A stretch of 60,981 nucleotides of DNA from Patescibacteria group bacterium (GTDB lineage Bacteria; Patescibacteriota; Patescibacteriia; XYB2-FULL-38-15): the NCBI GenBank assembly GCA_041653675.1, contig JBAZEY010000007.1:1-60981 (forward strand). Direction: 5' to 3'. Each line of letters starts with the position of its first letter. Position 1 is the first letter of the stretch. Positions 11,386-26,316 of the stretch are shown piece after piece. The position numbers and the translations under genes are program-made. The notes beneath the pieces were generated by a model that worked only from the letters and a program-made list of their open reading frames with translations, searched no databases and was not told the origin of the DNA.

Positions 11386-11985
11386 CTACTCTACCTCGGT
11401 GAGGTTGGCGATCATGTTCTCGGCCGTGGAAACGTAACTTGTGCCGTCCGGCACAAACACCCTCAAGACGCCATCACGAAGTGGAACTATGTAGACCCTG
11501 TCATTCTGCTCGAGAATGTTAGAGTAGTAAATAATTTTTTTTACTGCTCTGCTCCCGAGCGTTACATCTTCGGACGAAACAACGTCCGTATAGTCCGCCA
11601 TCGCATTTTCTACCGTCCCAGTATCACGGAAAATCATAATCGGAAACAACGGTTCTGGCGGCAAGGTACCTGGCAGTTCTTGATCTGAGAAGGCGAGCGT
11701 CACTACTTCCTCGCCCTCAACTGTCTCACCGTACTCGTGGTACTGCCAACCCGTGGGGTAAATGAAATTCACACCCCACCTCATATTCTCGTACTCCGTC
11801 CAACCGGCCGGAACTTCTCCGGTCGCATCAGGCGTGACTTCTGGCGTGTTGTCCTGGGAAGAGTCAGACACTTCGTTCGTGTCTGAGTTTGTATCGGTGG
11901 GCGCCACGGAATTTTTTCCGCAACCCCAACCGACCAACACCAACGCGCCAATGATCGCCACTACGAAAACGATTCCCTTCTTCAT
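11386..11985 (-). CDS. lipoprotein of unknown function
   Basis: Start trimmed to MKKGIVFVV. Lipobox-like LVGWGCG. Stop lies 10 nt before the M23 gene start, so likely the same operon. Confidence 0.55.
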   Translation of the reverse strand: MKKGIVFVVAIIGALVLVGWGCGKNSVAPTDTNSDTNEVSDSSQDNTPEVTPDATGEVPAGWTEYENMRWGVNFIYPTGWQYHEYGETVEGEEVVTLAFSDQELPGTLPPEPLFPIMIFRDTGTVENAMADYTDVVSSEDVTLGSRAVKKIIYYSNILEQNDRVYIVPLRDGVLRVFVPDGTSYVSTAENMIANLTEVE

Positions 11986-12162
11986 CTTCTTTTCTCCTTC
12001 CCCGCTACTCGCGGGATTGTTTCCGCCTCTTCGGCGGATTGTTAAAAAGAGCCGACCTTTTATCCCTCCTTTAAAAAGGTTAATCATAGATTTTTCTGAA
12101 TTTAAAAATTAAAATTTTTTATTTTATAATTTTATCATAAAAAAACAAAAACTCGCACTCCG

Positions 12163-12655: not shown

Positions 12656-13354
12656 TTACTCAACCACTATCGTCCCCACAATTCTGTCCACCACCCCATC
12701 CAAATCAAATGTCTCCCGCTCAGCCGCGCACTCGCTCTGTTTTGGATCATCATAATTCAAACATTGCGGATAGCGCAAAACGAAATTTAAGGAAATTAAT
12801 TTTCCGTCTCGCGCCGTAGTATATGTATATGTTGTGTAAGTGCTGCCTGCCGCGCCTTCGCTTAAAGCCGCAACACAATAAACTCTGTCGTCCACCATTC
12901 TCCGCGCCACTCTCGCCGGAAAACTGCTCTCTGCCGGAGTTTCCGCGCAAGAAAATTCTCCCTCGGCAATTGTGACCGTCGGCGGCCACTCAGCAACACT
13001 AATATATTTTGCCGTCAAAGTTTCCGGATATTGAAATTCAAAGCCATTGCCACTCGAAATTTTCCAGCCGGGAGATAAAGGACAAGGAGAAAATTCGCAA
13101 TTCGGCGGCACCCGGCCAACAGAACTTCCGTCCGGACAAATTTTGGCTTCGAGTGTACAGGCCACCGGCTCGGGACAAGGCGCGAATTCGCAACTCGGCG
13201 CGACTCTTGAAACATAACTTCCGTCAAAACAAAGTTTGGCGTCAGCCGTACAAAAAACCGGCTCGGGAGTTTTCTCTCCAAAAGCTTGCCAAAGGAAAAG
13301 CCCGCCCGCTGCCAAAATTAAAACTACAATAAGCGCGACTAAAATTTTGTTCAT
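12656..13354 (-). CDS. secreted protein with two tandem Cys-motif repeats
   Basis: Signal peptide. CTADAKLCFDGSYVSRVAPSCEFAPCP followed by CTLEAKICPDGSSVGRVPPNCEFSPCP. Confidence 0.6.
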   Translation of the reverse strand: MNKILVALIVVLILAAGGLFLWQAFGEKTPEPVFCTADAKLCFDGSYVSRVAPSCEFAPCPEPVACTLEAKICPDGSSVGRVPPNCEFSPCPLSPGWKISSGNGFEFQYPETLTAKYISVAEWPPTVTIAEGEFSCAETPAESSFPARVARRMVDDRVYCVAALSEGAAGSTYTTYTYTTARDGKLISLNFVLRYPQCLNYDDPKQSECAAERETFDLDGVVDRIVGTIVVE

Positions 13355-13640
13355 ATCCCGTTAGAAGCCCTTGACGAAAAAAAATTTTAAGCGATTGGTG
13401 AGATAACGTTTTCCCATTCCAGACTTAAGATATCTTTCTCGCACACGAGCATCTTCTCTATTTAAACTTATTTCACAATAAATTAATTTCCATGGAGCCC
13501 CGAATTTAGTAGCTATGTTTTTTCTCGCATTATGGCTTGAAATTCTTTTTCTCAAATCGCAAGTTGAACCTGTATACCATTTCCCTGTTTTATCGCTTCT
13601 AAGAAGATAGACAAACCACATAGGCTTCTAACGGGACATA
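13355..13640 (-). mobile_element. inverted-repeat-bracketed GIY-YIG cassette
   Basis: Perfect 14-bp inverted repeat: TCCCGTTAGAAGCC (13356-13369) and GGCTTCTAACGGGA (13623-13636), extendable to ~17 bp. It encloses the GIY-YIG ORF exactly. Confidence 0.55.
13361..13621 (-). CDS. GIY-YIG nuclease family protein (86 aa)
   Basis: MWFVYLL..GKWYTGSTCDLRKRISSHN gives the GIY / YxG / R..H..N motif order. Confidence 0.8.
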   Translation of the reverse strand: MWFVYLLRSDKTGKWYTGSTCDLRKRISSHNARKNIATKFGAPWKLIYCEISLNREDARVRERYLKSGMGKRYLTNRLKFFFVKGF

Positions 13641-19780: not shown

Positions 19781-19861
19781 ATTGTTTTAGCGTGTTATAA
19801 TTAATTTAGGACTGGAGCGGCTTGAGCGGGGATAAATTTATCCTCCACTCAAGCCGTTCTT

Positions 19862-20134
19862 TTAGGTTCTGTTACATTCCGGGTTGTACCTACTAATTAA
19901 CGCTCGCTCCCTGCTTTCAGAAAAAGTGGTCACTTCATAAGAAAAAAATCTTATGTTCTTCCTCTGGAGACAAGGGTTATTTGGATCGGGATGTTGCGAT
20001 AATCTTTCGCGAAGGTTGTCGGCCCGACCCGCATAGACAATTCCTTGTTCTGAAGCAGTCTCTGCCAGGAGATAAACTCCCTCAGAGGTTGGAACCTTGT
20101 CTATGTCTCTCAAAAAGTCATACCAGCCGTTCAT
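19862..20134 (-). CDS. GIY-YIG-like domain protein (90 aa)
   Basis: GVYLL..GIVYAGRADNLRERLSQH, with an SD-like AAGGTAAGAG upstream. Confidence 0.6.
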   Translation of the reverse strand: MNGWYDFLRDIDKVPTSEGVYLLAETASEQGIVYAGRADNLRERLSQHPDPNNPCLQRKNIRFFSYEVTTFSESRERALISRYNPECNRT

Positions 20135-24030: not shown

Positions 24031-25605
24031 TTAATTCCCCGTTCTCATGGGCAGCGCCGGTTCTGTAAGCGGTTTGCTTTCCAAAATCGCCGGAGGAGTA
24101 ATTGTATTGTTTGCTTCCGCGGCGTCCAAAATTTCTTTCACCAGCGGAATTACCACCACTTCTTTATTGTAATATTCATCCGCCTGGCCTTTATCAATTA
24201 CCGGGAAAACAAGAGCCGGAACGAGAAGATCGTCATTTTCCGTATCCGCGTATTTAAAATATCTCATATACTGAATTTCCGGCGTGCCGAGCTTTACTTC
24301 CACTTCTTTCACTTCAAAATTTTCCACCGGATAATCTCCCTGGGGCCAGAGGTCTCCTTGCAAGGCAAACTTCATCACCCGCTCCTTATTCGTTTCCATG
24401 GCGTAATTTGAACTTTGATAATTTTGCGTTTGAAGGCCATAGAGGCTCGTCACTTTCATGGTCCTGATATTTATATTCACGGAAAATCCCACCTGGCTGT
24501 AGCCGCCCTGCTCCCAAGCTTCTTTCCCGTTTACAAGCAAGGGGTACAAAACCGTCATCGTGTCGGGAATCCAAACATCCGCGGCTGGAACATTTATATA
24601 TCCCAGTTTAGAACTCTGGCTAACTTTTGGCGCGCCATAATTTCCCCGGTCAATTCCGTAGCGGGTCATAAAATTATTGGCTGCCTCAATTAATTTCTCA
24701 TCAGAGGGCACATCAGACTGGCTCAAACGCGGCAAAGAGCCATAATCTACCGGCATAGTTCTCTGCCAATTTTCATACATGGAAACCATTCCTTCGTAAG
24801 GATTAAAATCAACAAGATATCCGCCGTCCCGATCTTCGGCGAGCGAGAGGGTTTGAACTTTAACATTGCTCAATTTGCTAGGATCAAAAAGTCCAAAACT
24901 AATTTTGTCCAAAACTGAATTTAAATTTTCGCTGCCATAGCTTTTTAGCCGTTTCAAAACCGCGACTTCGCTTGCCTCGGGCAGAGAAAAATCTTCGCCG
25001 ACATAGACATAGCTATATTTTGTCGCGTATTGCGGCGGCATCATTTTTATGTCCGGCACAGAGGCGTTCGTTCCTCCGCCTCCGCCCAATCCCAAAGCCG
25101 GACGGGAAGTAGAAGACGGAGCTTGCGGCGAGGCAATCGGCGCGGTGACACCCAAAGAACTATCCGATTCAGCACCGACTAAACCTTGGCTTGAACCTCC
25201 AAGATCACCAAACGCCCGCTCGCCGGTTTCTTCCACTCTCACTCCCTTAGAAAAATTCGCCAAAGGATTTCCCGCTCCGAATTCTGGCATACTAATCCAA
25301 CCGTTTTGCACGGCCGGCACGACAATAATTACCGCCAGGACAATCGTCGCGGCCGCTAAAGATAATCCCCGCCAGAAAACCAAATTTTTCCAAAGCGACG
25401 GCCGAGCACTTCCCGCTTTTTCTAATTCCTCGGCCCGCGCGAGCAATTTCATTTTCAATTCTTGCCGAAAATTTTCATCAAATTTATCCTGGGGTTTATT
25501 GGCAATCATTTTAGCCATAGTGGCCTCCAATTCTTTTTGATATTTTTTTAAACCCGGATCAATGATAAAGAGTTCGTTTAAAATTTCTTGGATTATTTTT
25601 TCCAT
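24031..25605 (-). CDS. putative anti-sigma factor / membrane-anchored extracytoplasmic protein
   Basis: Downstream of the ECF sigma gene. ~90-aa cytoplasmic N-terminus, a single TM (LSLAAATIVLAVIIVVPAV) and a large extracellular domain. Confidence 0.45.
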   Translation of the reverse strand: MEKIIQEILNELFIIDPGLKKYQKELEATMAKMIANKPQDKFDENFRQELKMKLLARAEELEKAGSARPSLWKNLVFWRGLSLAAATIVLAVIIVVPAVQNGWISMPEFGAGNPLANFSKGVRVEETGERAFGDLGGSSQGLVGAESDSSLGVTAPIASPQAPSSTSRPALGLGGGGGTNASVPDIKMMPPQYATKYSYVYVGEDFSLPEASEVAVLKRLKSYGSENLNSVLDKISFGLFDPSKLSNVKVQTLSLAEDRDGGYLVDFNPYEGMVSMYENWQRTMPVDYGSLPRLSQSDVPSDEKLIEAANNFMTRYGIDRGNYGAPKVSQSSKLGYINVPAADVWIPDTMTVLYPLLVNGKEAWEQGGYSQVGFSVNINIRTMKVTSLYGLQTQNYQSSNYAMETNKERVMKFALQGDLWPQGDYPVENFEVKEVEVKLGTPEIQYMRYFKYADTENDDLLVPALVFPVIDKGQADEYYNKEVVVIPLVKEILDAAEANNTITPPAILESKPLTEPALPMRTGN

Positions 25606-25737
25606 ACCCCGTTAGAAGTCTGTTTTCCTCGGAAAACTTAATCCGAGTGGCAAACTTCTTTTTTTTAATAAACCCCGTTCCCGTCAAGAGAAAAATTTTA
25701 AAGAAAATTTTTCGTCAAGGACTTCTAACGGGGCATA
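25604..25737 (+). mobile_element. 134-bp ORF-less (MITE-like) derivative of the GIY-YIG cassette
   Basis: Inverted repeat ATACCCCGTTAGAAGTC / GACTTCTAACGGGGCAT. The inner right end TTTTTCGTCAAGGACTTCTAA encodes ..FFVKDF*, matching ..FFFVKGF* of the 13361 gene. Confidence 0.5.
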
Positions 25738-25749
25738 CATTTTTTAAGA

Positions 25750-26316
25750 TTAAAGATTTAAAAGTATAAAAAGTAAAAACGCGGCTGCTCCCATTTCCGC
25801 CCGGAGCTTCCCTATCTCGCGGGAAAAAATCATTTTACAATTTGCTTCGGAAAGTCCGGCGATTTCGGAAATTTCCCGATAAGACATTTCTCCCCAAAGC
25901 CGCATCATGATAATTTCCCGATGCGCCGGGGAAAATTTCGTTAAATATTTTTTTACCTCATTCAATTTTTCTCGCGCGTCTAAATCAACTTCTAAATTTT
26001 CCGAAGCGGCCAAATCCCAAACATCTTCAATGTTTTCACTCGGCCGGGCGGCTCGATAATGATCAATCACTGCGTGGCGGGCAATGCCATAAAGCCAGGC
26101 GGAAAAACTCCCGCGGCTAATTTTGTATCCGCTGATATTTTCCAAAACTTTCATAAAAATATCAGAGACTAAGTCTTCAGCCGTTTCTTTATGATAAGTT
26201 TTGTAATAAACGAAGCTGTATATTTTTTTTACATACGCCTCGTAAAGCGCGCCAAAACCCTCAAAGTTTCCGGCTTGGCAGGCTATGATAATTTGTTTTT
26301 CTTGGATTGAATCCAT
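25750..26316 (-). CDS. ECF-type RNA polymerase sigma-70 family factor
   Basis: Region 2 (ETAEDLVSDIFMKV..; SAWLYGIARHAVIDHYR) and region 4 (MSYREISEIAGLSEANCKM). Confidence 0.85.
   Translation of the reverse strand: MDSIQEKQIIIACQAGNFEGFGALYEAYVKKIYSFVYYKTYHKETAEDLVSDIFMKVLENISGYKISRGSFSAWLYGIARHAVIDHYRAARPSENIEDVWDLAASENLEVDLDAREKLNEVKKYLTKFSPAHREIIMMRLWGEMSYREISEIAGLSEANCKMIFSREIGKLRAEMGAAAFLLFILLNL

Follow-up and report, generated by a model that had tools for sequence, protein, structure and literature searches.

A 127-bp insertion with a 4-bp target duplication at the start codon of the gene that follows an ECF sigma factor gene in a Patescibacteria genome

In a DNA stretch of 60,981 nucleotides from a Patescibacteria group bacterium of the XYB2-FULL-38-15 lineage (assembly GCA_041653675.1, contig JBAZEY010000007.1, positions 1 to 60,981; hereafter the window), the gene for an extracytoplasmic function (ECF) sigma factor and the gene for a 524-residue membrane protein that follows it on the minus strand are separated by a spacer of 144 nt. 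What is this intervening DNA, and how did it come to lie there? The initial annotation had proposed that a 134-bp derivative of a cassette encoding a GIY-YIG nuclease, itself devoid of any open reading frame (ORF), was inserted between the two genes. Comparison with relatives shows that the DNA is indeed an insertion, that it duplicated its target and left both genes intact, and that the inserted DNA and the GIY-YIG cassette are members of one family.

The evidence comes from orthologous DNA of nine lineages, recovered in a search for relatives of the 524-residue protein. A sister lineage is represented by three contigs from three samples (L120, L121 and L122), in which this protein is 97% identical to that of the window, the flanking genes show 95.5% nucleotide identity and their four-fold degenerate sites are 87-92% identical. 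The site is empty in all three contigs and reads ...AATCTT TAA tcttaaaaaatgt ATG gaaaaaataatcc..., with 13 nt between the sigma stop codon and the start codon. The window has identical flanks on both sides and a surplus of 131 bases, made of a 127-bp element and a second TATG. Therefore, the element spans positions 25607-25733, and the TATG (CATA on the plus strand) found on either side of it is a true target-site duplication. Six further lineages (L126/127, L128, L129, L130, L131 and L124/125) have spacers of 13, 13, 16, 13, 17 and 30 nt, so that seven of the nine orthologous loci carry a short spacer of 13-30 nt between the sigma gene and its downstream neighbour, in line with the much shorter spacer that the initial annotation had expected in relatives. 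Sequencing runs X1-X3, examined as assembled contigs, contain both alleles. A contig of run X3 joins position 25602 directly to 25734 and thus skips exactly 25603-25733 (131 bases); this empty form comes from a relative about 87% identical. The filled site is present in contigs of the public runs X1 and X2, as well as in an independent Joint Genome Institute (JGI) contig (L133).

The element is non-coding, only spurious ORFs of 40-42 residues overlapping it, as had been stated; the 134 bp first assigned to it resolve into 127 bp plus the duplicated CATA (25603-25606 and 25734-25737). On the plus strand its layout is ...TTCC CATA, CCCCGTTAGAAGTC, 99 nt, GACTTCTAACGGGG, CATA CATT... The terminal inverted repeats are perfect over 14 bp, at 25607-25620 (left arm, CCCCGTTAGAAGTC) and 25720-25733 (right arm, GACTTCTAACGGGG), as delimited by motif count, repeat finder and family alignment. 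When the flanks are included, the repeat finder gives arms of 17 nt each (25604-25620 and 25720-25736), 94% complementary and 99 nt apart. The left copy of the duplication (25603-25606), TATG on the gene strand and a single TATG in the sister lineage, holds the start codon of the 524-residue protein gene (25603-25605), and the right copy, at 25734-25737, is likewise defined by the sister-lineage comparison. What had been taken for a 2-nt gap before the start codon is in fact the last base of the inverted repeat and the T of the duplicated TATG. The 11-mer at the core of the ends, CCCGTTAGAAG, occurs at exactly four sites of the window (0.71 being expected by chance with one mismatch allowed), namely both ends of the short element (25608-25618 and 25722-25732) and both ends of the GIY-YIG cassette (13357-13367 and 13625-13635); the identity of core motifs reported for the two elements is thus confirmed.

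Several smaller features lie between the arms. A hairpin made of CTCGGA, an 8-nt loop and TCCGAG (25628-25647) appears in the predicted fold and is supported by a compensatory change, CTCGGG/CCCGAG, in two related copies (L104 and L132, described below). It replaces the hairpin GTTTTCC-TCG-GGAAAAC described previously, in which one G had been counted twice. An internal copy of the terminal motif (direct repeat D1; CCCCGTT on the plus strand, AACGGGG on the gene strand; 25673-25679) is kept as TAACGGGG in most short copies of the family. Further to the right, GAAAAATTTT, the loop AAAG and AAAATTTTTC form a subterminal A/T hairpin (25690-25713), detected as inverted repeat I12 and in the folds, whose position is kept and whose closing bases covary throughout the family. 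It is followed by the subterminal motif GTCAAG (CTTGAC on the other strand; 25714-25719), which also occurs in full elements, at the 3' end of their GIY-YIG gene. A complementarity between the interior and the host flank (repeat I6) was judged to be due to chance, since nothing similar was seen on inspection of the L104/L132 site.

Is this insertion the only one of its kind? The ends CCCCGTTAGAAG...CTTCTAACGGGG define a family that extends across Patescibacteria. A pattern scan with the end consensus, run on one genome per species, yielded at least 119 stretches. In the fetched Patescibacteria loci, about 85 copies have the same ends, and most of them sit on start codons (these counts, and those of flanking duplications given below, are among the matches listed). 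Exact cores at both ends were found in at least 69 elements, nearly all in Patescibacteria metagenome-assembled genomes (MAGs). The 4-bp flanks are identical in 50 of these 69, with TATG/CATA in 43 cases, and TATA, TGGA, TGAG and CATG also represented. Because the two flanks change together at sites other than TATG (TGGA/TGGA, TGAG/TGAG, TGAA/TGAA), they are true duplications. The preference for TATG is partly built into these figures, since the scan pattern forced YAT beside one end; eight copies that were not selected by the YAT pattern have the duplications CATA (three copies), TATG, TGGA, TGAG, TGAA and TAAA. Of 40 elements with a duplicated TATG, 38 have an ORF of at least 100 codons starting at that ATG; for TATG sites of these loci in general, the proportion is 24% (p = 5e-21).

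In Patescibacteria, a match is accompanied at a distance of 70-200 bp by a second end, which is exact or has one or two mismatches. Single pattern matches in genomes outside Patescibacteria have no partner end and are chance matches. Several copies may coexist in one genome, as in MGEK01 and JACRNW01. The elements lie about as often in one orientation to the host gene as in the other, which disfavours a restriction-and-ligation model with a fixed TATG overhang. Phage records and viral contigs gave no match, and the idea of a phage or virus vector was set aside. The past mobility of the element family, suggested earlier, is borne out by the empty sites and by family membership, and we regard it as very probable that the window element is a mobile, non-autonomous insertion of the CCCCGTTAGAAG-ended family.

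How does the short element relate to the GIY-YIG cassette lying 12 kb away? The latter, at 13356-13636 on the minus strand, is a full-length member of the family, 281 bp long, with the same inverted-repeat core and with CATA at 13352-13355 and 13637-13640. Its ORF (13361-13621) encodes an 86-residue protein that matches PF01541 over residues 1-68 (4e-14), and the stop codon falls inside the inverted repeat. This full element, the presumed source of a mobilising nuclease, has a perfect empty site of its own, ...gaaatacg TATG tataaa..., in L154/L155 (L154 1469-1503); it lies on the 20-kb contig of the sister lineage that is also devoid of the short element. In the genome JACRNW01, an intact full element (L115 6785-7065) sits on the TATG start of the orthologue of window gene 11386-12087 (minus strand), and the equivalent site of the window (12085-12095) reads without interruption ...cagaaaaatc TATG ata... 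Short and full forms are presence/absence polymorphisms between close relatives (about 95% identical), and they travel together.

The initial annotation saw in the short element an internally deleted copy of the full one. Kinship within one family stands, on the strength of the 11-14-nt ends and the CATA flanks; a simple internal deletion of the copy at 13356-13636 is now very improbable. The deletion would account for the shared ends, which amount to about 26-34 nt at one end, with a run of 25 of 26 contiguous nt (TTTTTCGTCAAGGRCTTCTAACGGG), and to about 15 nt at the other. However, similarity beyond the repeat extends for only about 11-20 nt beside one end, and the inverted repeats differ between the two forms (GTC versus GCC). 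When the terminal 15 nt are removed, the interiors align with a score of 22, which was reached by 168 of 2000 shuffles (p about 0.08) and is not significant; the formal alignment thus places the interior no higher than shuffled controls. The peptide ..RKFFVKDF, which had been read as a remnant of the nuclease terminus just before its stop codon, turns out to reflect a conserved cis-acting end that overlaps the nuclease C-terminus NRLKFFF, invariant in 29 homologues. In addition, the interior of the short element follows a plan of its own that recurs in short copies of many lineages: after the first inverted repeat come CYTGRC, the A-tract/T-tract hairpin, the internal TAACGGGG and another hairpin, which is variable, before the closing inverted repeat. 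Dozens of copies from Saccharibacteria, Uhrbacteria, Nealsonbacteria and other MAGs have this architecture. A strict automatic test recognized the A/T hairpin in at least 24 of 51 copies, and most others show it on visual inspection; its closing bases covary across the family (GCAG/CTGC, GGAG/CTCC, GGCAT/ATGTC, CGAA/TTCG). From these comparisons, the window element is a member of an old short lineage that propagates independently, rather than a local deletion product.

The short element carries no gene and would be moved in trans. The only coding elements with these ends in the fetched loci are GIY-YIG units of about 280 bp: the window copy, L115 (intact) and L069 (frameshifted). Among the approximately 85 elements of these loci (among the matches listed), none was found to be a partner of 0.6-4 kb with the same ends. 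Close homologues of the nuclease number in the hundreds across Patescibacteria lineages, with 66-87% identity and a length of mostly 85-86 residues, and an alignment of 29 homologues shows no variation at the catalytic Tyr, Tyr, Arg, His, Glu and Asn. The predicted structure is that of a bare GIY-YIG domain (mean pLDDT 76). The closest solved structures are those of the UPF0213 protein BH0048 and of the structure-specific nuclease SLX1, followed by the catalytic domain of I-TevI (TM about 0.5). Full elements at two other loci have 4-bp duplications as well. At L152 395-670, a full element with a TGAA duplication splits the host ATG, and the last G of the element, together with TG, makes up the GTG start of a holin-like gene. 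At L134, the first GIY-YIG gene has covarying arms, AGAAAC/GTTTCT, and its duplicated TAAA falls on the stop codon of the gene upstream. The same locus (401-975) contains two different small GIY-YIG genes in tandem (86 and 91 residues), which adjoin a bAvd-type gene; bAvd is an accessory protein of diversity-generating retroelements.

These observations suggest the following scheme. The short element entered the TATG that holds the start codon of the gene after the ECF sigma gene, and TATG was duplicated in such a way that the downstream copy still supplies the ATG. It would have been moved in trans by the 86-residue single-domain GIY-YIG nuclease of the approximately 281-bp members. This enzyme may recognize the 14-bp inverted repeats together with about 20 nt of subterminal sequence or the hairpin, and may cut at the element boundaries. 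The target would be opened with a 4-bp stagger, and host repair and ligation would complete the insertion. Shared ends and co-occurrence are what point to the GIY-YIG nuclease as the mobilising enzyme, and we give this assignment about even chances at best. The broader proposal is more tentative, and we hold it to be possible, with somewhat less than even confidence: the family would represent an undescribed class of prokaryotic DNA transposon, whose sole protein is a bare SLX1/UPF0213-like GIY-YIG domain of about 86 residues, whose autonomous unit is about 281 bp long, and which makes 4-bp duplications with a preference for TATG start codons. According to this proposal, the host gene would receive a new 5' flank made of the end of the element. 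In the literature, we found no description of a GIY-YIG-linked transposon or transposable element of the miniature inverted-repeat type (MITE), Patescibacteria included. That the same gene starts carry related copies in diverged lineages (window and L123; L104 and L132) hints at a homing-like site preference.

Several facts weigh against this scheme. Besides the YAT imposed by the scan, they include the nature of the evidence just mentioned for the enzyme and the copy that the Falkowbacteria genome JACRNW01 (L123) has at this site, oriented as in the window, because of which a recent gain and an old gain followed by precise loss could both fit. Moreover, GIY-YIG enzymes are hydrolytic and, to our knowledge, possess no strand-transfer activity, so that integration would need an extra joining step.

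Another explanation would be that the element is a MITE of a conventional insertion-sequence (IS) family, mobilized for instance by a DDE transposase encoded elsewhere, and that the GIY-YIG gene is only a passenger or a selfish add-on. Classical insertion sequences, IS5-like elements among them, typically combine terminal inverted repeats of 14-17 bp and a duplication of 4 bp, and we know of no GIY-YIG enzyme that transposes DNA. Nevertheless, we think this explanation unlikely. Not one of the approximately 85 elements (among the matches listed) measures 0.6-4 kb, and the sole ORF found between the ends is the GIY-YIG gene. This ORF fills the full element from end to end, with a stop codon in the inverted repeat and an invariant C-terminus that overlaps the cis-acting end, an arrangement that is tight for a passenger. 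If it is true that the GIY-YIG nuclease moves these elements, it would constitute a new enzyme class for DNA transposition; the autonomous unit of about 281 bp would be the smallest known and would set a new lower size limit; and a role would be found for the small GIY-YIG proteins that are widespread in the ultra-small Patescibacteria (also called CPR, candidate phyla radiation).

Does the element resemble any system already described? As far as structure goes, it has all the features of a MITE: it is non-coding and shorter than about 300 bp, has terminal inverted repeats, duplicates its target as judged by comparison of filled and empty sites, and exists in multiple dispersed copies. It would work like a bacterial MITE, the transposase role being putatively assigned to the GIY-YIG nuclease, which is all that the partners with the same ends encode. 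The Correia elements of Neisseria (CREE/NEMIS), ERIC and RUP are alike in being intergenic, non-coding and 100-160 bp long, with terminal inverted repeats and a short duplication. Correia-type MITEs are, in addition, co-transcribed with their neighbours, and their repeats form an RNA stem. They differ in that they have no sequence similarity to the window family and duplicate TA, whereas the window family duplicates 4 bp and prefers TATG start codons; furthermore, the only coding relatives found for the window family carry a GIY-YIG nuclease and not a known transposase.

Among published systems, the nearest is formed by the Ssn nucleases and the NTS/SRM hairpin repeats that flank their genes (Chenal et al. 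2025, PMC11893778). The nucleases are single-domain GIY-YIG proteins of about 90 residues, whose gene is bracketed by its own repeat, and many non-coding copies of the repeat are present per genome; the authors themselves remark on the IS-like architecture (PMC11893778). Their article shows neither target duplication, nor empty site, nor transposition, and does not mention Patescibacteria (PMC11893778). SRMs are local hairpins of 20-50 nt, whereas the ends described here belong together as arms of a single long-range inverted repeat, with 100-250 nt between them, although the short copies do have a subterminal A/T hairpin as well. The Ssn system is further defined by a protein of the CDD family cd10448 and by the cutting of single-stranded DNA at specific sites beside the repeat; the best structural relatives of the nuclease studied here are UPF0213 and SLX1.

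Elements of the IS200/IS605 group with their PATEs, and REP sequences with RAYT, resemble this family: they are small, carry subterminal hairpins, use a target linked to a tetranucleotide, have non-coding derivatives that are mobilized in trans and excise precisely. They have neither terminal inverted repeats nor target duplication and use an HUH tyrosine transposase. An IS200/IS605-type identity was rejected in view of the perfect inverted repeats and the true 4-bp duplications. GIY-YIG homing endonucleases, such as I-TevI and the free-standing Seg proteins, have the same catalytic fold, spread selfishly and recur at the same site across lineages, but they possess a separate DNA-binding domain and one long target, with no inverted repeats and no duplication. 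We rejected the idea that the cassette is a homing endonuclease gene, since its product is a bare 86-residue domain that stays below the TIGR01453 cutoff (26.6 bits, cutoff 56), the insertions are found at many unrelated genes, and the window flanks show no co-conversion.

When was the window copy gained? The question arises because of the copy in L123, whose 524-residue protein is 76-79% identical to that of the window. The two elements show 90% identity overall and 88% in the interior, and each is the nearest relative of the other; other copies reach at most 77% in the interior, including L104, from L123's own genome (76-77%). In a tree of the sigma factor and the downstream protein, the window and the empty sister lineage are grouped together with a support of 100/100, and L123 falls outside, in an unresolved trichotomy.

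A second shared site sheds light on this situation. The start of a gene for a HAD-type hydrolase carries copies of the same short subfamily at L104 1490-1614 (JACRNW01) and L132 1694-1819 (a JGI contig). There the elements are 97% identical, the flanks 83-85% and the four-fold degenerate sites 61%, with a sharp fall of identity at the element boundaries. Since the elements are so much more alike than their flanks, copies may be much younger than the split of their hosts and yet occupy the same site. The pair points either to recurrent insertion at the same site or to a very strong constraint.

At the sigma locus, we slightly favour a recent or independent gain of the window copy at a preferred site. 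The alternative is an old insertion, made before the window and JACRNW01 lineages split and later removed precisely in the sister and other lineages, one TATG being left behind. Several observations speak for it: the two copies are mutual nearest relatives and share insertion site and orientation; of their 13 differences, 11 are outside stems and the remaining pair, in the inverted repeat, compensate each other (C-G to T-A); and the element and the flanking coding DNA are about equally conserved. There is also a well-known precedent in Tn10 and Tn5, which are excised precisely between the short direct repeats on either side of their inverted repeats. However, at least two precise losses would have to be assumed on the sister contig, one for the short and one for the full element, and further ones in L126 and L131 if L123 branches outside them, a node that is not resolved. 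The unpaired positions of the element differ by about 18% between the window and L123, versus 27-40% for the four-fold degenerate sites of the flanking genes, and the L104/L132 pair suggests that same-site copies can be much younger than the host split. An old gain with later losses is, in our opinion, rather unlikely. A transfer by homologous recombination from an L123-like donor was rejected, because the window flanks are those of the sister lineage, and unlike those of L123, right up to the duplication.

What, then, are the consequences for the two genes? The 13-nt spacer of the empty allele, which has no Shine-Dalgarno sequence, suggests that translation of the two genes is coupled. In the window, the RNA of the gene strand is predicted to fold with -50.5 kcal/mol (z = -5.5), the arms of the element forming a stem of about 19 bp, at the base of which the downstream AUG is paired with the upstream TATG copy. 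A Shine-Dalgarno motif was seen for only 4 of the 44 long genes of the window; their leaders are rich in A/T, many with a T directly before the ATG, and TATG start contexts are common. Because the AUG would be sequestered in the stem base, in a genome that has nearly no Shine-Dalgarno sites and seems to use open A/U-rich leaders, we predict, with even chances of being right, that the insertion uncouples the downstream gene from the sigma gene and lowers its translation, or else makes RNA processing necessary. In the case of Correia elements, the RNA stem formed by the repeat is cut by RNase III. Neither a promoter-like nor a terminator-like site was predicted inside the element, the TTGACG motifs being without a properly spaced -10 box. 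A search for RNA-seq runs that contain the locus yielded none.

The strength of this predicted structure also speaks for a different interpretation, namely that the spacer serves the sigma/anti-sigma operon as a conserved cis-regulatory leader or a structured RNA, or is an element domesticated for that role. The initial annotation had named a conserved spacer of similar length in relatives as what would speak for such a leader. One relative does have it: L123 has a 141-nt spacer with 90% identity, so that the sequence occupies the same place in two lineages and shows compensatory change. It is nonetheless absent from seven of the nine orthologous loci, among them the nearest relative, the sister lineage with its 97%-identical protein; elements of the same type stand at unrelated genes in many genomes; and Rfam gives no match at gathering score, the best sub-threshold hit having E = 0.4 and 20 bits for a cutoff of 93. 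The leader interpretation fails on these grounds, and we hold it to be most improbable. For annotation, this means that a mobile element accounts for an odd long leader that might be mistaken for a riboswitch, and that mobile DNA can borrow or rebuild the start codons of genes in these genomes.

The genes on either side were examined as well. The upstream gene (25750-26316, minus strand) encodes 188 residues, and its designation as an ECF-type sigma factor gene is confirmed by matches to Sigma70_r2 (3e-18), r4_2 (8e-07) and TIGR02937 (95 bits, cutoff 43). The gene whose start codon was the target (24031-25605, minus strand) follows the sigma gene in every relative examined. Its 524-residue product has no match in Pfam or NCBIfam; its position, an N-terminal segment followed by a membrane helix, and a pairing with the sigma gene that is conserved in nine lineages make it a plausible anti-sigma factor. 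In the window as in L123, neither of the two genes is disrupted, and the insertion is therefore tolerated. A sigma factor and its partner, normally coupled by a 13-nt spacer, are here parted by a strong predicted RNA stem, which makes the locus a natural experiment on sigma/anti-sigma stoichiometry in an unculturable organism. Should the new transposon class prove true, the locus would also offer a natural before/after pair for an insertion that rewires a sigma/anti-sigma module.

Finally, the window contains a second, distant GIY-YIG-like ORF of 90 residues (19819-20134), which shows 38% identity over 34 residues to the cassette protein (E = 1e-4). This ORF is without CCCGTTAGAAG ends and is followed by a long, near-perfect palindrome.

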